Assembly: GCA_963785845.1 (NCBI GenBank) | Contig: CAWAWP010000003.1 | Span: 738,862-802,861, forward strand | Length of the DNA: 64,000 bases | Origin: an uncultured Chloroflexia bacterium | GTDB taxonomy: Bacteria > Chloroflexota > Ktedonobacteria > Ktedonobacterales > JADMIN01 | Direction of reading: 5' to 3' | Part shown: positions 23,271-63,464 of the stretch, piece after piece | How the letters are laid out: every line of letters starts with the position of its first letter | Position numbering within the stretch: position 1 is the stretch's first letter | Translations under genes and position numbers: made by a program | The notes under the pieces: model-generated | Databases searched by the model: none | Seen by the model: only the letters and a program-made list of their open reading frames with translations | Told to the model about the DNA's origin: nothing

Positions 23271-24206
23271 TAGAGGCTGTCTGAGAAGGGTCCGGATCGT
23301 GCAGGGATGGGGAGGCACCGGGAGGTGCTGCCATGTTCCGACAACCCTATCCGAGCGATCTGCGGGATGCCGAGTGGGCGCTGCTCGCGCCGTTGCTGCC
23401 CGCGGCCAAGCCGGGCGGGCGGCCACGCAGCGTGGACCTGCGCGAGATCGTCAATGCCCTCAGTTATTGGCTGCGCAGCGGCGAGGCGTGGCGCCTGCTG
23501 CCGCATGATTTCCCGCCCTGGCGGACCGTCTATCACTACTGGCGGGCGTGGCGCCTCAGCGGCGATTGGGAGCGCATCCACGCCCTCTTGTATGCGCGGC
23601 TGCGCGCCCGTGTGGGCCGGGCGGCGACCCCCAGCGCAGGCATCGTGGACAGCCAATCGGTCAAGACGACGGAAAAGGGGGCCCGCCCAGCTCAGCGGGC
23701 TTCGACGGCGGCAAAAAGGTGAAGGGGCGCAAACGCCACCTACTGGTCGATACCACCGGCCTGGTCGTCAAAGTCCTCGTCCACCCGGCCGACGTCCCGG
23801 ACGGCATCGGCGGCCGGCGGTTGCTCGAGGCGATCGCCAACCGCGCCCAGGCGTTGCCTCGCCTGCGCCACCTGTGGGTCGACGCCGCCTACCAAGGGAG
23901 TTTCAAGAAGTGGGTGGAGCAGACGCTCGGCTGGACGGTGACGGTGGTCCGCAAGCCACGCCGCTGGTTCTGGGTGGGGCCGGGGCAGGAGCCGCCGGCG
24001 CTGGAGAGGCCACCGGGCTTCCAGGTGCTGCCGCGCCGCTGGGTGGTGGAACGCACGTTTGGCTGGCTCGGGCGCTGGCGCCGCACCAGCAAGGACTACG
24101 AGTTCCTGCCCACCACCTCCGCGTGCGTCCTCTACGCCATTATGATCCGCCTCATGCTGCGTCGGCTGGCGGACAGCGACGGCTAACCCTTCTCAGACAC
24201 GCTCTA
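23271..24206 (+). mobile_element. IS5-family insertion sequence (IS427-like, 936 bp)
   Basis: Terminal inverted repeats TAGAGGCTGTCTGAGAAGGGT (23271-23291) and ACCCTTCTCAGACACGCTCTA (24186-24206) match at 19 of 21 positions. A two-frame DDE transposase lies inside. Confidence 0.85.
23333..24186 (+). CDS. IS5-family transposase, orfA (23333-23722) joined to orfB (to 24186) by a -1 shift at GAAAAGGGGG
   Basis: orfA: DAEWALLAPLLP..GRPR..REIVNALSYWLRSG..WRLLP. orfB: GFDGGKKVKGRKRHLLVDTTGLV..HLWVDAAYQG..VERTFGWL. The frames meet at the G5 run 23677-23681; one extra G would also fuse them. Confidence 0.85.
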
Positions 24207-40954: not shown

Positions 40955-41196
40955 CGTTCGCCGGTAGATTGAGCTCATCCAAGCGTCGCTGCTCGCCGCC
41001 GTAGACCTGCGCCAAGAGGCTCGGCTTGACCAGTTGATACCGCCCGCACATAGACCTTCTCCTGGAACCCAAACGATTTATCACTCTCCAGTTCCATCAG
41101 GGCATATGGACGCCGATATGCCCGGCGATCGAACGAATGGGGTGGGTCCTAAGGCAGGGTCTTTTCATTATTCGTTACTGCTGGTAACCTGGCAGC

Positions 41197-42466
41197 ATGC
41201 AGACAGAAGAACTCGGGCGGAGCTTACTGCGGGCCTTGGCGACCGTTCCGGACCCGCGCTCGCGCCATGGCCGGCGGCATCCGTTGCCGGCGATCTTGAC
41301 CCTGGCGACGGTGGCCATGCTGTGCGGGGCGCGCAGCCTCTACGCCATCACTCAGTGGGGGCGCGAACAACCGTCGGAGGTCGTGCGCGCGCTCGGCTTT
41401 ACGCGCCAGCCAACCCCTGGGGTGGCGACCCTGCATCGCGTCTTCAAAGCGCTGGACGTAGACGTGTTCGAGGCGGTGCTGGGGCGGTGGGCGCATGCGG
41501 CCTTGGGCGAGCGCGGGAAGGGGGAGGCGATCGCCATCGACGGCAAGGCGCTGCGCGGGCTCCACGGCGAGCAGCTCCCCGGCGTCCGGTTGGTGGCCGC
41601 CTACGACGTCCAGACCGGCCTCGTGCTGGCGCAAAAGGGGGGTCAGGCAGCCACGCGCGCCCGCGGCGCGGGCTGAGGCGCGGGCTGAGGCGCGGGCTGA
41701 GGCGCGGGCTGAGGCGCGGGCTGAGGCGCGGGCTGAGGCGCGGGCTGAGGCGGAGGCCGAGTGGGCCGAGGAGAAGGCCCAGGCCGAGCTAAGCCTCGCC
41801 CCGCACCTGCTGCGGCAGTTGGCGTTGCGTGGCCGCTTGGTGACGGGGGATGCGCTCTACTGCCAGCAGGCGCTCTGCGCGCAAATCCAGCAGGCCGGCG
41901 GACACTACCTCTTTGTCATCAAGGCGAATCAGCCGGAGTTGCTGGACGCGGTGCGGTTGCTCTTCGACCAGCCCCCGCCCGGCGAGCGCTTCGCGACCGC
42001 CGGTAGTCGGCGCACGCAGCGCGAGCGGCACGAAGTCCGGACGCTCGCCGCCTCGGCAGCGTTGGCGGACTACCTCGCCGAGTTGGGGTGGGCCGGGGCG
42101 CGCCAGGTTCTGCGGCTGCAGAGCCTGGTGACGCACGTGCGCGGCGAGCGGGCTGGGCAGACGACGCAGTTCGTGCGCTACTTCCTAACGAGCCTAGGCC
42201 CCGAGGTCCCCGTGCGCCGCCTCCTGCGCCTGGTGCGGGAGCATTGGCACATCGAGAACCGGCTGCATTACGTCCGCGACGTGACCCTGGGCGAGGACGC
42301 CAGCCAGGTCCGCTCGGGGGCCGCTCCCGAAGTGCTCGCCGCCCTCCGCAACGCCCTCCTCGGCGTCTTGCGCCACCACGACCATGACAACATCGCTGCC
42401 GCCCTGCGACACTTCGCCTGGACGCCTGGCGCCGCGCTCTGCGTGCTCGGCCTATCTCCTCCATAA
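41197..42466 (+). CDS. ISAs1-family transposase, two frames joined at the G6 run 41637-41642, with an internal (RAEA)n insertion
   Basis: VPDPRSRHGRRHPLPAILTLATVAMLCGARS.., IAIDGKALRG, then ..LVTGDALYCQ..GGHYLFVIKANQPEL..HWHIENRLHYVRDVTLGED. Removing one G gives a continuous ORF. Confidence 0.85.
41666..41761. repeat. 12-bp tandem repeat GCGCGGGCTGAG, 7 perfect copies plus 1 degenerate
   Basis: Read directly. It is in frame with the downstream transposase frame as RAEARAEA... Confidence 0.9.
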
Positions 42467-55952: not shown

Positions 55953-56028
55953 TGGAGCGGGAGACGGGACTCGAACCCGCGACGCCCTGCTTGGAAGGCA
56001 GGTACTCTACCAACTGAGCTACTCCCGC
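55953..56028 (-). tRNA. tRNA-Gly: tRNA-Gly (anticodon UCC), CCA encoded
   Basis: The reverse complement GCGGGAGTAGCTCAGTTGGTAGAGTACCTGCCTTCCAAGCAGGGCGTCGCGGGTTCGAGTCCCGTCTCCCGCTCCA folds as a 7-bp acceptor, D arm GCTC/GAGT, anticodon stem CCTGC/GCAGG with loop CTTCCAA, and a T arm with TTCGAGT. Confidence 0.95.
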
Positions 56029-56380
56029 ATGGATGTCGCCACGTCGTCGCATGGCGGCGCCGCGAGACAGCATAGCACATCCTCCGTCCACCGCGTAAGT
56101 GCCGCCAGGCCGCTTGCATGGGGACGGCGCCATCCCGTACGCTCACCATCCCCGACTTGACGACGAGAGCGCTCATCTCTACCGGGCTCGCCGCAGATAC
56201 ACAGGTCCCCGGCGTTGCCGCTCGGCGGCGTAATTGTCGTCCTCGCCATCCTCACCGTCTGCTACGCCTATATCGCGCTCGCGCGGCAAGAGGATGTTGG
56301 CCAGCTATCCTGATGCGCGGTGCGTGCAGGCGAAGCCAAAGGCACAAATGGTTGCCACGTCGCTATCTATTGTTGCATGC

Positions 56381-56775
56381 TGCCTACGTGAAAGTTGTGT
56401 GCAACACCAACATCGTCTGCATCTGTTGGTATCTGTGGCGTTCTGCCCAGAGTACCGACGCAAAGTGTTGACGCCGCCCACAGATGCACGACTGAAGGTC
56501 AGCCTTGATGAACAAATCGAATCCCGAGGCCGAGAACTCGTTGAGATGGGGGTCATGCCAGACCAGGTCCACCTGCCCGTCGGGCATGACCCCACATCCG
56601 GGATCCACCGACTGGTGGAGCTCCTGAACAGTCATTCGTCGCATGCGTTGCGCGAAGTTCCCTATGTTAAAGTCGTGCCTGCCGTCACTGTGGACGGCTC
56701 CTACTTTGTCGGCACGATGGGTGGCGCGACCTGGAAACCCTGCAGCGCTACGTGGAAAGCCAAAGAGGACGCTGA
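56381..56775 (+). pseudogene. tnpA: IS200-type Y1 (HUH) transposase TnpA, degenerate
   Basis: ..CPEYRRKVL.., VMPDQVHLPV (the first His of HUH is Gln), LNSHSSHALREVPY, GSYFVGTMGGA. After a 1-nt deficit at 56730-56731 comes LETLQRYVESQRGR* (catalytic Tyr). No clear start codon. Confidence 0.6.
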
Positions 56776-56778
56776 TTC

Positions 56779-57906
56779 GTGGTAGACCAGACGACGCGCA
56801 AGAGCTACTCATACAAACTCAGGCCCACACCCGATCAGGAGCGGATACTTGAGCGCACCCTCATGTTCTGCCGACACATCTACAATGCCGCCGTAGAAGA
56901 GCGAAGGGCCGCTTGGCAACGGCGAGGCATATCGGTCGACTACTACCAGCAGAAGGCAGAGTTGCCGGGCATCAAGGAGGCCCTGCCGGAGTACGCCGAG
57001 GTCAACAGCCAGGTCTTGCAGGACGTGGTGTTGCGCGTAGACCGCGCCTACCAAGCGTTCTTTCGCTGGGTGAAGGCGGGCGAAACCCCGGGCTATCCCC
57101 GCTTCCAGGGGCGCAATCGCTACCACTCGTTCACCTATCCCCAGGTAGGCGAGCATGGGAGTGCGCGGCTCGATAACGGCTTCCTTGCCTTGTCGAAATT
57201 AGGCCGTGTAGCCGTGCGTTGGAGCCGCCCCCTGGAAGGCACGCTCAAGACCGTCACCATCACGCGGGAGGCGGACGGCTGGTACGCCATCCTCTCCTGC
57301 GCCGATGTCCCTGCCCAGCCCTTGCCGCCTACCGGCAACGAGACGGGGATAGATGTTGGCTTGAGGGTGTTTCTCGTCACCGCAGGCGGGCTGACGGTCG
57401 AGAATCCGTGTCACCGTCGCAAGGCGGAACGGAAGCTGGCCAAGGCCAACAAGCGGATCTCGCGCCGAAAGAAGGGCAGCAAGCGGCGCGCGAAAGCTGT
57501 GGGCTGGCTGGGCAAGGCCCACCAAGCGGTGAAGCGCCAGCGGGCGGACTTCCACCACAAGACGGCGATCATGCTGTTGCGCCGCTACGACACGATCTAC
57601 CTTGAAGATTTGCGGGTTGCCAACATGGTCCGGAATCGCCACCTGGCCAGGTCCATCTCCGACGCGGGCTGGGCGCACTTCCGGGCCATCCTCGAAGCCA
57701 AGGCAGCATGCGCCGGGCGTCGGGTCGTCGCCGTGCCACCCACCTACACCAGCCAGGACTGTAGCAGATGTGGGGGACGCATCCCCAAATCATTGAGCAT
57801 GCGTACCCATGTCTGCACAAACTGCGGGCTGGTGCTCGACCGCGACGAGAATGCGGCTAGGAACATCCAATGGGCCGGGCAGGCCCTTCGGGGACTTGCC
57901 GGGTAG
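56779..57906 (+). CDS. tnpB: TnpB (IS605 OrfB-type RNA-guided endonuclease)
   Basis: YSYKLRPTPDQERILERTLMFCRHIYNAAV (N-terminal HTH-like part). RuvC triad candidates are GIDVGL, IYLEDL and DRDENAARNI. Zinc ribbon CSRCG..x13..CTNCG. Confidence 0.9.
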   Translation: MVDQTTRKSYSYKLRPTPDQERILERTLMFCRHIYNAAVEERRAAWQRRGISVDYYQQKAELPGIKEALPEYAEVNSQVLQDVVLRVDRAYQAFFRWVKAGETPGYPRFQGRNRYHSFTYPQVGEHGSARLDNGFLALSKLGRVAVRWSRPLEGTLKTVTITREADGWYAILSCADVPAQPLPPTGNETGIDVGLRVFLVTAGGLTVENPCHRRKAERKLAKANKRISRRKKGSKRRAKAVGWLGKAHQAVKRQRADFHHKTAIMLLRRYDTIYLEDLRVANMVRNRHLARSISDAGWAHFRAILEAKAACAGRRVVAVPPTYTSQDCSRCGGRIPKSLSMRTHVCTNCGLVLDRDENAARNIQWAGQALRGLAG

Positions 57907-57958
57907 CCTGGCGGGGACGAACCGAGAATCCCCCGGCTTCAGCCGTGGGGAGTGTCAA
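57780..57958 (+). ncRNA. Putative TnpB guide RNA (omega/reRNA) scaffold overlapping the tnpB 3' end
   Basis: By analogy with characterised TnpB systems. The sequence shows hairpin CCCCGGCTTCAGCCGTGGGG (57931-57950) followed by AGTGTCAA (57951-57958). The 5' limit is a guess. Confidence 0.35.
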
Positions 57959-58069
57959 CCCAAGCAGGCCACACGAACGCGCAACGTCGCCCGTTGCACT
58001 CCAACCATGCTATGCTGCACGCTGCGGCGCGATGCGGTCGCAAAGGTCACGCGAGGGGGCGGCACGCAT

Positions 58070-61000
58070 ATGTATCTCAAGCGGCTTGAGCTGCACGGCT
58101 TCAAGAGCTTCGCGCCACGCACCGTCCTCGAGTTCAGCCCTGGCATCACCGCGATCGTCGGCCCGAACGGCTCCGGCAAGTGTCTGGTAGGCGAAAGCCT
58201 CGTCACACTCGCCGATGGGCGCGACATGCCAATTGCTACGCTGGTAAACACTGCGCTAACATGCTCGTCTGCACCGGAGCAGATGGACGATGGCATGCTT
58301 ACCCGCGAAAATCCCAGCGGCGTACGCGTGCTCTCTCTCGACCCACGCACGTTGCGGCTCGAAACGCGCCCTGTCACGGCGTTTGTCAAACGCACAGCGC
58401 CCCCAACGTTGGTGCGCGTGCGCACTCGGTCGGGCCGGAGTGTTACCGCGACGCCCTACCACCCCCTTTTCACACTTCTGCGCGGCCGGCTCCATACGCT
58501 GCGCGCTGACGAACTGCGCGAGGGGATTCGCATCGCCCTGCCCCGTATACTGCCCACGAGCCACAACACAGTCAACCTCAATACGCCAGCGGTGATCGCC
58601 GCATTCTCTGAAGCAGACCACGTCTACATCACGTCATCCGACGATATGCGGGCATGGGGAGATACCGCTCGGGTACAGCATGGCTCGTGGAAGGCGTGGC
58701 GCACCGCCGCACAGGTGTCCGACATCCAACTCGCCGGGTTTGTCCAGGGGCAGGGTGTCAACGCTGCCGTTCTTTCGCGGCTCGCATCCAAAGCAACCGC
58801 TCCATTGCCTCAACAGGTGCACTACAGCTCGCATGGCGCGAAAGCGATCTCGCTGCCAACGACGTTCTCGCCTGATCTCGCACGCTTCCTAGGGTTGGTC
58901 GTCGCGGAAGGACGCAACACCGCTGAGGCGAATATTCGGTTCGTTAACGCAGACTCAGCTGTGAATGATGAGTTCGAGCGTTTGGCACGAGTGTTATTCG
59001 GTGTCGGCGTTTTTCGGCGGCAATACAAGGAGAACGCGGAAGACCTCATCATCATGGCGCATGCTCTTGGGCACAGTCTGGAGCGACTCTTCGGTCTCAA
59101 AATCAACTCGAATTCCGCGACGAAATGCGTTCCGCCACAGCTCTATGAGTGTGATGAAGAGACGCAGTGGGCATTCCTTTCGGGATTATTCGAAGGGGAT
59201 GGGCATGTTCATCTACGCGCTTCCGCAGTAGGCAAGCCTGGCGTCAAGGCTCAGCACTACATCGAGTACGTCAGTGCGAGCGAAACCCTCGCGCGAGGCG
59301 TAGTAGCGCTGCTTCTACGCCTCGGCGTTTGCGCCATCTTACGCCCAAAGGTACATCGCTTCCCCCCAGGCTCCGCACGAGAAACCAGCACCTATTACCA
59401 GGTGTTCATCTACGGACGCGAACAATTGCGGCTTGTGGCCCAACACCTGACCTTCGTTGGGAAGAAACAGGCCGCGTTGCTACCATTGCGCGCCCTTACT
59501 GGCCCAGGTAATCCCAACTACGATCTCGTGCCGGGGGCGACGGAACTGGTACATGAAGCGGCTCGACGCGCCGGCGTGAGCGTGAAACGTCATCGGGCAG
59601 GGAGGCCAAAGCTGGCGGCGTACGTTGAGCAGCGCTGCGAGGCGAGCCGTGCGGGCATCCGCGAGGTTGTAGAGCAGATTGAGGAACTGGGCGACACGCC
59701 CGACGTCGCCCGTGATATCCTCGATACCTTACGCACGCTGGCCGATTCCGATGTGCTTTGGGATGAGATCGTCGCAGTGGAGGAGGTGACTCCGACCGAT
59801 CCATGGGTCTATGACCTCTGCGTGGACGAGACACACAACTTTGTGGCGAACAACGTCATCGTCCACAACAGCAACATCGCCGACTCGATCCGCTGGGTGC
59901 TCGGCGAGCAGAGCATGCGTCAGTTGCGCGGCAAGAAGAGCGACGACGTGATCTTCGCCGGCGGCCAGGGACGCGCGACGATGCAGATGGCCGAGGTCGG
60001 CCTGATCCTCGATAACTCCTCGTCCTGGTTGCCCTCCGAGTTCTCCGAGGTGACGGTCGCGCGGCGCAGCTTCCGCTCCGGCGACAACGAGTACCTCTCC
60101 AACGGCGCTCGCGTCCGCCTGCGCGACGTGCTGATGCTGCTGGCGCAGGCGCGGATCGGCCACGACTCGTACACGGTGATCGGACAGGGGCTCGTCGATC
60201 AGGCGCTCAGTCTCCGTGCCGACGAACGCCGCGGGCTCTTCGAAGACGCCGCCGGCATCCGTCAATTTCAGACACAGCGGCAAGACGCCGAACAGAAACT
60301 CAATCTCACCGCAACCAACCTCTCACGCCTGCGCGACATCCTCGGCGAGATCGAGCCGCGACTCGCGCCCCTCGCCGAACAGGCGCGCCGCGCGACCGAG
60401 TTCACCGCCTCACGTGAAGAATTGACCCGCCTGCTGCGCGTCTGGTATCGCCGCCAGTGGCGTGAGCTGCTGATCGCCCGCGAGCAAGCCGAGGCCGCCG
60501 AACGTGACCACGAGGCGCGCATCGCCAAGCTGCACGACGCACTCGCCGTCGAGGACGCCCTCACGCAGGAGCTCCGCACCGAGCGCGACGCCGTACTGGC
60601 CGAGATCGCCGCCCTGCGCCGCGCACGGGGCGAGGCAGGCGCGCGGCTGCAGACGAGCGAGCGCGAGTTGGCCGTCGCCCGCGAGCGTCTGGCAAGCGTC
60701 GAGCGACAGGTAACCGATTTCGCAAGCGAGCAGGAGCAACAGGAAGATGGCGCCGCCGCTGCCGAGGCGCACATCGGCGCGTTGGAGGCACAGCTCGCCA
60801 CCGCCGAACAGATCGCCGACGATAGCGCCGCCGCCCTGGAACGCATGGAGCGTGAAGCGCTCTCCGCCCGCCAGAATCAGGAGCGTGAAGAGGTCCGCCT
60901 GCGCACCGCCCAGCGCGACGTAATCCAGGTGCAGGCGCGGCTCGGCGCCGCCCAGAGCGAGCTTGGCCGCCTGCAACGCCAGCTTGGCGAACGCAACCGC

Positions 61001-63464
61001 GCGCTGGCCGCTCGTCGCGACGTGGTCGCCTCTGCACAGGGCAAGCTCGACGCGATCTCCGCGCAAGTTGAAGAGCGCCGCCAACGCTTCGACACCGCCC
61101 ACGCCGCCGTCGAGTCACTCGTCGCCGCCAGGGAACAGTTGGCCCGCGAGAGCGGCGACGGCCAGGCCGAGGTGGAGCGTCTGCGCGGCGAGACGGCGGA
61201 CGCCCAGCGCGAGAAGCGCGCCGTGGAAGATCGCCTTGCGCTGTTGGAAGAGTGGCGCCGCAACCTCGAAGGCTTCGGCGACGGCGTCCGCGCGCTGCTG
61301 CAAGGCGATGCGCCCGATCGCCCGCCATTGCTCGGCGCCGTCGCACAGCTCGTCGGCTCGCAACCGGGTTTCGAGCAGGCCGTCGAGGCGGCGCTCGGGC
61401 TGTTCGTGCAGGCGGTGGTCGCGCCCACCGAGGACGACGCGCATCGCGCGGCGGAATGGCTCCGCGCCGGGTCCGCTGGTCGCGCGCTCTTTGTCTGGCC
61501 GGAGCATGTGGGGCGCAGCGCTAGCGGGCGTCCGTCGGATGGCCCTTTACCGCCCGCCGACGGCGAGGGGCATCTCGGCTTGGCGCGCGACGCCGCGACC
61601 TGCCGGGACGATCTGCGTCCGCTGGTGGCGCGGCTGCTCGGCGATACCTGCGTGGTGCGCGACCTCGCCGTGCTCCAGCGGACGTATGGTGGCAAGGCGC
61701 TGCCCGCGCCGTTCGTCACGCTCGACGGCGAGATGGTCCATCCCGACGGCTGGCTGCGTGGCGGCAAGGCCAGGGTGGCGCACGGCGGTGGGCATGACTC
61801 CGGCGTGCTTGCGCGCGAACGCGAGTTGCGTCAGCTTCCCGCGGAGGTGGATCGTCTCACCGCCGTCATCGCCGAGCTCCAGGCGCGATTCGAGCGGGCA
61901 CGGACGCTTCAGGCCGAGCGCGGGTCGCGCGGCGACGCGCTGGCGAAGGAGTTGGCGAAGGCCGAGGCGGTGGCGCAGGATCTCGCCAAGGCCGTCACCG
62001 CCGCCACCCGGGAGCAGGAGCGCGCGCAGAACGAGCTACAGGTCGGGCAGACCGTTGTGGAACAGCTGGCGGCGGAGGTCACCGGGCTGGAGCAGGAAGT
62101 CGCGGCCACCGAGGGGCGCGTCGCCGAGCAGGAGGAGGCGCAGCGCGACGCCGCCGAGCGTGTCGAGGAGGTGCAAGCCGAAGTCGACGATATCCTCGCC
62201 GAAGGCCGCCGCCAGCAGGAAGAGTTCGGTCGCGCCCGCACCGCCGTAGCCGTCCAGCGGCAGGAGGCGAAGGCGCTTGGCCAGCGTGTGGAACAGTTGC
62301 GCGCCCAGGCGCGCGAACTCCAGGCGCAGATGAGCCGGCGCAGCGAACGCTTGCGGGTGCTCGGCGCGCAGCAGACGCAACTTAACGTGACCATTGACGA
62401 GCTTGAGACGGCGTTGACCGAGGCGCGAACCCAGGCGCAGGCGCTTACCGAACACCTGCGCGAGCGCGACGCGCACCAGACGGACCTTGAGCGGCGCGCG
62501 CTGGAACTCGAACGCGGTCAGGGCGTCGAGCGGCAAGAGCTCGCCCGCGTGGAGGTCGAGTACCGGCGCTGCATCGTCGATTCGCAGCGCGCCCGCGACG
62601 CCGTGGAGACACTGGCCCAACAGATCCGCGAGGAGCTCGCGGACGAGGACGAAAGCGATCCACTGGCAATGATTCTCGGCGGCGCGCGAGGCAGGCGAAG
62701 AGGCCGAAGATGCGCCCGCGCCGGCGAGTTCGCCGGAGGAAGCGGCGAAGATGCGCCGCCAGATCGACAGCCTGCGCAATCGTCTGAAGCATCTCGGCGG
62801 CTACGATCCCGAGGCGCCGCAGGCATACGCCGAACTGAAGACACGCCACGACTTTCTCAGTGGCCAGGTACGCGATATGGAGCAGGCCTCCACCAACCTG
62901 CGTAGCGTGATCGCCGAGCTCGACGCCACGATGCGCCGGCAGTTCGAGGAGACGTTCCACGCGGTCAACGAACGCTTCCAGCGGCACTTCGTTACGCTCT
63001 TCTCTGGGGGCGCCGCCCGGCTGGAGTTGACCGCGCCGCGCCGCTCGCAGGCCGAGGACGAGGACGACGAGCTGGCCGGAGAGGAGAAGCTCGCCCCCGC
63101 GGCGAAGGGACTCGGTGGCATCGAGGTCTTCGTGCAGATCCCCGGCAAACGGGTGCAAGACCTCTCGCTGCTCTCGGGCGGCGAGCGCGCGATGGTCTCC
63201 GCCGCGCTGCTCTTTGCCCTGCTCGAAACGAATCCGCCGCCCTTCTGCCTGCTCGACGAGGTGGACGCCGCGCTCGACGAGGCCAATGTCGTGCGCTTCT
63301 GCGACATCCTCAAGCAACTGGCGCAGAACACCCAGTTCATCGTCATCACGCATAATCGCGTCACCATGACGCATGCCGACGCGATCTACGGCGTCTCGAT
63401 GGGGCCGGACAGCGTCTCGCGCGTCCTCTCGATGCGCTTGGCCGAGGTAGCCGCCGCTCGCTGA
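58070..63464 (+). CDS. smc: Chromosome partition protein SMC, interrupted by an intein (58181-59869), with an apparent frameshift within 62673-62692
   Basis: ATG 58070 gives MYLKRLELHGFKSF..IVGPNGSGK | intein | SNIADSIRWVLGEQS... Long coiled coils and a hinge follow (..GFEQAVEAALG..). The C-terminal head lies in ORF 62751-63464 (LSGGERAMVSAALLFAL, LLDEVDAALD, ITHNRVTM). The part of the track ORF upstream of 58070 overlaps tnpB and is not coding. Confidence 0.9.
58181..59869 (+). mobile_element. Class-1 intein (563 aa) with a LAGLIDADG homing endonuclease, inserted in the SMC Walker A loop
   Basis: Cys1 block A CLVGESLVTLADG, block B VTATPYHPLF, LAGLIDADG motifs LARFLGLVVAEGRN and AFLSGLFEGDGHV, blocks F/G VYDLCVDETHNFVANNVIVHN, with Ser as the +1 extein residue. 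Confidence 0.9.

Follow-up and report, generated by a model that had tools for sequence, protein, structure and literature searches.

A LAGLIDADG-containing intein in the Walker A loop of SMC from an uncultured Chloroflexia bacterium, a member of a rare allele found across phyla

Inteins in the P-loops of replication and repair ATPases are a textbook case. Here we describe an element of this kind in the gene for the SMC ATPase (smc) of an uncultured Chloroflexia bacterium (GTDB lineage Chloroflexota, Ktedonobacteria, Ktedonobacterales, JADMIN01). The analysed stretch, hereafter the window, comprises 64,000 nucleotides of contig CAWAWP010000003.1 (assembly GCA_963785845.1, positions 738,862 to 802,861 of the forward strand), and coordinates below are those of the window. 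The SMC ATPase of archaea has been reported to contain inteins (Novikova et al. 2016, Mol Biol Evol 33:783, PMC4760082), and in the main text of that study SMC stands outside the top-15 tables for either domain. The PhoCDC21-1 intein likewise interrupts a P-loop, that of archaeal MCM (Beyer et al. 2019, PMC6801210). A full-text literature search returned no paper on a bacterial SMC intein, Novikova et al. being the only source found to name SMC inteins, those of archaea.

Limits, catalytic residues and predicted fold of the insert

The smc frame opens at the ATG at 58070 and encodes a 37-residue N-extein, which is followed by CLVGESLVTLADG from 58181; the insert ends 563 codons on with THNFVANNVIVHN, up to 59869, after which the frame continues with SNIADSIRWVLGEQS. 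In the Walker A loop of SMC the insert separates Lys from Ser, GPNGSGK↓C...VHN↓SNIAD (arrows mark the junctions). The list of open reading frames (ORFs) and direct translation agree on these limits, and the coordinates and sequence statements of the first-pass annotation, made from the letters alone, proved exact. The parts of the element and its immediate borders are as follows.

About 10 nt 5' of the smc ATG at 58070: Shine-Dalgarno-like GAGGGGG
58070-58180 (+): N-extein of smc (37 aa), with Walker A GPNGSGK at its C-terminal end; its alignment to the B. subtilis Smc head (PDB 3zgx) begins at residue 1 of the latter
58181-59869 (+): complete intein, 563 aa, Cys1 to His562-Asn563 (Pfam, AlphaFold2, Foldseek)
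58181-58555 (+): N-terminal HINT half, aa 1-125, matching the PhoCDC21-1 intein
58181-58219 (+): block A with Cys1
58445-58474 (+): block B, T91-x-x-H94
58556-58855 (+): helical insert between HINT and endonuclease, aa 126-225 (AlphaFold2 helices 135-204)
58856-59500 (+): LAGLIDADG homing endonuclease domain, aa 226-440 (Pfam, alignment, AlphaFold2, Foldseek)
58877-58912 (+): LAGLIDADG motif 1, LARFLGLVVAEG, with catalytic E243 at its end
59174-59203 (+): LAGLIDADG motif 2, FLSGLFEGDG, with catalytic D340 at its end
59501-59743 (+): C-terminal helical domain, aa 441-521, before the C-terminal HINT half (AlphaFold2 helices 453-521)
59744-59869 (+): C-terminal HINT half, aa 522-563
59804-59848 (+): block F, WVYDLCVDETHNFVA
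59849-59869 (+): block G, NNVIVHN
59870-59872 (+): +1 Ser codon AGC, the Ser of Walker A GK[ST]

Profile searches recover both parts of the element. The Pfam family Intein_splicing (PF14890) matches intein residues 10-563 with an E-value of 3.8e-22 and 79.2 bits, above the curated cut-off of 35.8, the match being divided by the endonuclease insert, which itself matches LAGLIDADG_3 (PF14528, E-value 2.1e-12). The host gene gives matches to SMC_N, AAA_23 and SMC_hinge on the flanks. When the exteins are joined, they align without a gap over residues 1-213 to the B. subtilis Smc head 3zgx (E-value 7.6e-66), with Walker A matched across the junction. Since the splicing profile matches and the exteins close without a gap, the initial identification of a LAGLIDADG intein splitting the SMC Walker A stands, as do its blocks A, B, F and G, the Cys1, His-Asn and Ser+1 arrangement and the two LAGLIDADG motifs, every one of which could be located. 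The proposal that the joined exteins run on as one C-extein from 59870 to 63464 holds only in part, as discussed below.

Conservation was assessed in an alignment of the window intein with 11 full-length relatives. C1, T91, H94, E243, D340, D545, H552, H562 and N563 are invariant in all 12 sequences. The set of splicing residues in the window intein is complete (C1, T91 and H94, D545, H562-N563 and Ser+1), and both acidic endonuclease residues, E243 and D340, are in place, one per LAGLIDADG motif, which bears out the earlier view of the element as intact. The AlphaFold2 model built from the same alignment (mean predicted local distance difference test 91.3, predicted template-modelling score 0.90) displays a HINT domain split between residues 1-125 and 522-563, a helical insert at about 126-225, a LAGLIDADG core at about 226-440, and another helical domain at about 441-521. 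Over residues 231-422 its secondary structure follows the pseudo-dimeric α-β-β-α-β-β-α endonuclease fold, which in Foldseek searches of the PDB matches I-Tsp061I, I-DmoI and I-OnuI as well as intein endonucleases. The best whole-molecule matches are as follows, with one mini-intein for comparison.

PI-PkoII, 2cw7: E-value 6.3e-27, TM scores 0.67/0.70
TliVMA, 7qss: E-value 1.2e-26
PI-PfuI, 1dq3: E-value 4.6e-20
PI-SceI: E-value about 1e-9 to 1e-10
PhoCDC21-1 mini-intein: E-value 4.0e-9, HINT part only, 35% identity, root-mean-square deviation (rmsd) 1.4 Å

Across mini-inteins the HINT fold superimposes with rmsd of 1.4-2.8 Å, and PhoCDC21-1 is the closest solved relative by sequence too (E-value 8.4e-27 for the whole chain). 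GC content is 0.55-0.59 in the endonuclease region and 0.65-0.74 in the remainder of smc, a dip compatible with a foreign origin. Taken together, the insert is very probably an intact class-1 intein with a monomeric double-LAGLIDADG homing endonuclease, placed between the Lys and the Ser of Walker A.

The opposite notion is that the insert is no splicing element at all and represents a bacterial intein-like (BIL) domain, a free-standing endonuclease that became fused, or a chimera of the assembly. It has only its general possibility in its favour and is scarcely credible, given that blocks A, B, F and G are all there with terminal His-Asn and Ser+1, that removal of the insert exactly restores a universally conserved motif, and that the same architecture recurs in at least 74 independent assemblies. 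BIL domains are HINT domains of variable or secreted proteins that lack an endonuclease and a conserved +1 nucleophile, and this reading was rejected on account of the conserved housekeeping site, the nested endonuclease and the conserved Ser+1. The notion as a whole is effectively refuted by the Pfam domains, the junctions shared by 74-77 loci and the gap-free extein alignment; chance resemblance was rejected too.

Distribution, signs of mobility and selection

We scanned a database of one genome per GTDB species (185,579 species genomes) and confirmed a relative of the intein in 145 stretches; counts of sites rest on the 80 loci that were kept. The junction G.NG.GK↓C with an open frame is present in 77 of the 80, and 74 of those 77 also have the VHN↓SN end, the intein end of the other three lying beyond the contig or the search pattern. 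All 80 loci come from metagenome-assembled genomes (MAGs), 75 of them titled as bacteria. By record title they comprise about 23 Chloroflexota, 25 Acidobacteriota (mostly Pyrinomonadaceae/Blastocatellia), 10 Omnitrophota, 6 Planctomycetia, 5 Rokubacteria, 3 Armatimonadota, 1 Rubrivirga, 2 'Saccharimonadia' and 4 DPANN-type archaea. The host range of the allele takes in at least 8 bacterial phyla and DPANN archaea. The first-pass annotation had suspected a rare or undescribed insertion allele. Rare is a fair description on these counts; undescribed is not supported, since no fewer than 77 of the 80 loci share the allele and archaeal SMC inteins are already named in PMC4760082.

Protein-level searches agree. 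With the intein as query, 23 SMC proteins that contain the element were recovered, at identities of 39-72% (39-61% where coverage is at least half); SMC_N is detected in 22 of them, the 23rd being a fragment, and the single non-SMC match is a DnaB intein. These proteins are recorded under such names as 'intein/homing endonuclease', 'LAGLIDADG family homing endonuclease, partial' and 'AAA family ATPase, partial'. A profile search of 1.84 billion cluster representatives gave about 45 clusters (50% identity, counted by hand) in which the element starts at residue ~37-44, i.e., at this site.

Several features of individual hosts deserve mention. The junction reads GPNGCGK↓C, with a Cys three residues before Cys1, in Acidobacteriota, Planctomycetia, Omnitrophota and Rokubacteria hosts (L005-L012, L017-L031, L045-L062 and others). 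The DPANN loci are L068, L071, L075 and L080, and both junctions, GK↓C and HN↓SN, are found in L068, L071 and L080; the SMC-like archaeal host proteins of L068 and L080 are short, at ~830 aa once the intein is conceptually removed, as compared to ~1,230 aa in the window. In L044, from a 'Saccharimonadales' MAG, the SMC N-extein and intein junction are nearly identical to those of Limnocylindria (Chloroflexota) loci; this contig is probably mis-binned, and L054 is perhaps another such case.

The element is absent from some close relatives: SMC heads from Ktedonobacterales MAGs (P0025-P0032), 83-89% identical to the spliced window head, have the contiguous GPNGSGKSN. Where the intein is present, its identity to the window and that of the SMC head are decoupled. 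The Acidobacteriota with the most similar inteins share 53-56% identity in the intein and 32-37% in the head; Limnocylindria, which belong to the window's own phylum, share 45-50% and about 51%, and two further loci (L003, L004) share 57-58% and 84-86%, respectively. Forms in decay also exist, such as the 367-aa element of a Roseiflexaceae bacterium (P0022), with a degenerate and scrambled endonuclease region, and a mini-intein of this allele from which the endonuclease has been deleted (P0023). Variants of 505-507 aa (P0013, L051, L052, L061, L078), several from Limnocylindria, have lost the helical insert 126-225.

The closest relative of the window locus is L001, which comes from a Chloroflexia MAG and is 82.8% identical in DNA across window positions 56327-63460, and all ratios of nonsynonymous to synonymous substitution rates (dN/dS) given here are from the comparison of these two. 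The ratio is 0.11 for HINT, 0.13 for the endonuclease and 0.14 for the C-terminal helical domain; the most variable part is the helical insert, with 0.34. The splicing and endonuclease domains are thus under purifying selection. Taken as a whole, empty sites, decoupled identities, decay forms and selection make up the pattern that is classic for a homing cycle driven by a functional endonuclease, and the window intein is probably active as a homing element. Because both domains are under purifying selection, competence for splicing and for homing may reasonably be inferred.

The proposed mechanism can be laid out in a few steps. Because the intein parts the Walker A Lys from the Mg2+-coordinating Ser/Thr, the precursor would be unable to bind ATP and would be dead as an ATPase. 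Splicing would then proceed by established intein chemistry: an N-S acyl shift by Cys1, transesterification in which Ser+1 attacks the thioester, cyclisation of Asn563 aided by His562, and an O-N shift that would leave ligated exteins and a restored Walker A. The endonuclease, using E243 and D340, is predicted to cut the intein-free smc allele at the DNA for the Walker A loop, which in the window, when joined, reads CCGAACGGCTCCGGCAAG↓AGCAACATCGCCGACTCG and is kept across phyla mainly at codon positions 1 and 2. Repair from the intein-bearing copy would spread the element, and cycles of such cutting and repair would account for its patchy cross-phylum distribution.

The host gene and competing explanations

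The remaining part of the host gene is arranged as follows.

59870-62672 (+): initial part of the smc C-extein, read in the 58070 frame, with the remainder of the N-terminal head, the coiled coil and the hinge (Pfam SMC_N, SMC_hinge)
About 61328-61669 (+): SMC hinge
62673-62715 (+): frameshift zone, a GC-rich acidic low-complexity linker, GGCGGCGCGCGAGGCAGG, with a net +1 nt relative to L001
62751-63464 (+): smc C-terminal head with signature LSGGE and Walker B LLDEVDAALD, shifted by +1 from the 58070 frame

All the SMC domains are found, though not in one reading frame. Past about 62680 the frame of 58070 no longer resembles SMC, and it reaches a stop at 62905; the C-terminal head lies in a separate ORF, which matches Pfam SMC_N positions 136-218 (E-value 2.2e-27). 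The range 59870-63464 amounts to 3595 nt, no multiple of 3. The first-pass annotation, which took the host gene to be continuous to 63464, overlooked this frameshift, situated ~2.8 kb 3' of the intein. L001 is in frame at the shift zone of the window and carries an independent 7-nt insertion that truncates its own ORF, in a GAC/GAT acidic repeat (L001 10880-10900, equivalent to window position 63071).

These observations weigh against the reading of the insert as an intact homing intein, in that the host gene is frameshifted here and truncated in the closest relative, and decay of smc in this lineage is conceivable. On the same side stand the facts that splicing and cleavage are deduced from sequence, and that a search of IMG/VR viral contigs returned generic LAGLIDADG matches of 22-30% identity, with no close relative, and hence no candidate transfer vector, among them.

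The most serious alternative, which we nevertheless hold to be unlikely, is that in this lineage smc has become a true pseudogene and the intein an as yet intact passenger in a dying gene, so that its splicing is irrelevant. It draws on the net +1 nt at 62673-62715, which cuts the C-terminal head off from the rest of SMC, on the insertion and premature stop of L001's own, and on surroundings rich in insertion sequences. The substitution pattern speaks against it. For the C-extein dN/dS is 0.105 on the 5' side of the window's shift, 0.08 from that shift to the L001 insertion site when read in the shifted frame, and 0.13 on the 3' side of the latter; purifying selection has acted on the C-terminal head throughout practically the whole divergence of the window and L001, and any inactivation would have to be very recent. 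Since dN/dS beyond the shift is as low as before it, the likeliest origin of the window's shift is either an indel introduced by assembly or sequencing or a mutation of very recent date. Both shifts fall inside GC-rich or acidic low-complexity repeats, which are prone to assembly indels. Moreover, the intein ORF is intact with its catalytic residues complete, and among the 55 loci whose flank reaches far enough 3', the full-length SMC-plus-intein ORF is intact in 48 and shortened in 6 (L001, L011, L012, L036, L049, L066). Of these six, L001 and L036 come from 'MFD' MAGs, which have contigs of great length and may be long-read assemblies. A frame analysis of the window by GC content at third codon positions, aimed at its general indel rate, was not discriminating, and a Pfam check of the candidate split ORFs of the window found only an IS5-type transposase.

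Still less probable is the idea that the intein is retained as a conditional-splicing switch, a post-translational gate on the SMC ATPase and chromosome condensation that would sense redox, temperature or metal stress. A Cys at -3 relative to Cys1 serves as a redox-sensitive disulfide trap in other inteins, and many relatives of the window intein have a Cys there (GCGK↓C), whereas the window's own -3 residue is Ser. The site in the essential Walker A loop, at which the precursor must be inactive, and the strong purifying selection on the splicing domain would suit such a gate, and regulatory roles for P-loop inteins have been argued by Novikova et al. (PMC4760082). However, the endonuclease is equally conserved, the empty sites in close relatives and the cross-phylum transfer fit a homing cycle, and the sequence holds nothing to tell a switch from ordinary selfish persistence.

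The window is rich in insertion sequences, and an IS200/IS605-type element lies directly 5' of smc (56234-57906, +, with flank to 58069). The neighbouring features are listed here.

56234-56785 (+): Y1 transposase TnpA (PF01797, E-value 4e-14)
56779-57906 (+): TnpB (OrfB_IS605 and Cas12f1-like TNB)
55953-56028 (-): tRNA-Gly, anticodon TCC, adjoining the IS605 element, in L001 too
23285-24186 (+): IS5-family transposase in two overlapping frames, with DUF4096 in 23285-23722 and DDE_Tnp_1 in 23509-24186
41495-42466 (+): second DDE_Tnp_1 transposase ORF (E-value 6.5e-11)

The IS605-type element and its position are kept in L001 at about 83% DNA identity; the dN/dS of TnpB is 0.19, and in tnpA several indels of 1-2 nt set the window apart from L001. 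The 3' end of tnpB with its flank (57760-57975) folds better than shuffled sequences (z -2.8), as expected for an omega-RNA, and an RNA family scan of the window from 55 to 64 kb found nothing beyond the tRNA. The two-frame layout of the IS5-family transposase is typical of programmed -1 frameshifting in this family and, being normal there, is no sign of a sequencing error. The ORF at 41034-41792, which overlaps the 5' part of the second transposase ORF, has no Pfam match.

Relation to described inteins

The finding changes no concept. The smc of the window is to be annotated as one gene with an intein, in place of labels such as 'LAGLIDADG endonuclease' or partial AAA ATPase; its frameshift needs checking. 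The allele furnishes a well-populated bacterial example of the rule that inteins target the P-loops of DNA-handling ATPases, and its large and diverse natural set, with about 45 clusters and with endonuclease-degenerate and mini forms, lends itself to the study of cross-phylum homing. The mini-intein variants and the conserved GK↓S junction could be useful as splicing tools.

The archaeal SMC inteins of Novikova et al. share the host family with the window intein, and the window's allele is also present in DPANN MAGs; the main text of that paper gives neither site nor sequence, so the two can be likened by host protein only. That text reports SMC inteins for archaea only, whereas 75 of our 80 loci are titled bacteria. 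In the splicing domain, the nearest solved relatives by sequence are PhoCDC21-1 and PabCDC21-1 (MCM-a, PDB 6rpq and 6rpp), also in a P-loop, with 35% identity and rmsd 1.4 Å over 124 columns. These, however, are mini-inteins without an endonuclease, and their host is archaeal MCM, an AAA+ protein, whereas the window intein resides in an ABC-type SMC head. By overall architecture the best matches are PI-PkoII (Thermococcus kodakarensis Pol, 2cw7), TliVMA and PhoVMA (7qss and 7qst) and PI-PfuI (1dq3), which likewise combine HINT, a double-LAGLIDADG endonuclease and extra domains of DNA-binding type. They share only 14-20% identity with the window intein and occupy other hosts and sites, and for them cleavage or splicing has been demonstrated, whereas the window intein is known from its sequence and a model.

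The closest relatives outside SMC are inteins of other P-loop NTPases, several of them placed, as here, between the Walker A Lys and Ser/Thr. They include site b of DnaB (P0024, ARPSMGK↓C...VHN↓T, 36% identity over 45% of the query), the VirB11/T2SSE ATPase (P0215, GGTGSGK↓C...VHN↓T) and MCM-a (GDPG.AK↓C...VHN↓S). Common descent of such GK↓S/T inteins is suggested, and no more than suggested because certain MCM inteins from outside the P-loop match equally well. It is tempting, if rather doubtful as a whole, to picture a pan-domain and formally undescribed SMC Walker A allele that would have arisen when GK↓S/T inteins of MCM, DnaB and VirB11 jumped ectopically from one Walker A motif to another, that would still be homing across phyla, and that might gate condensin by conditional splicing in some lineages. 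Its hosts so far are uncultured only: Chloroflexota, Acidobacteriota, Armatimonadota, Rokubacteria, Planctomycetota, Omnitrophota, Rhodothermota and DPANN archaea. Set beside these systems, the window intein is neither unique nor mechanistically new; it is another member of a rare and little-described allele.

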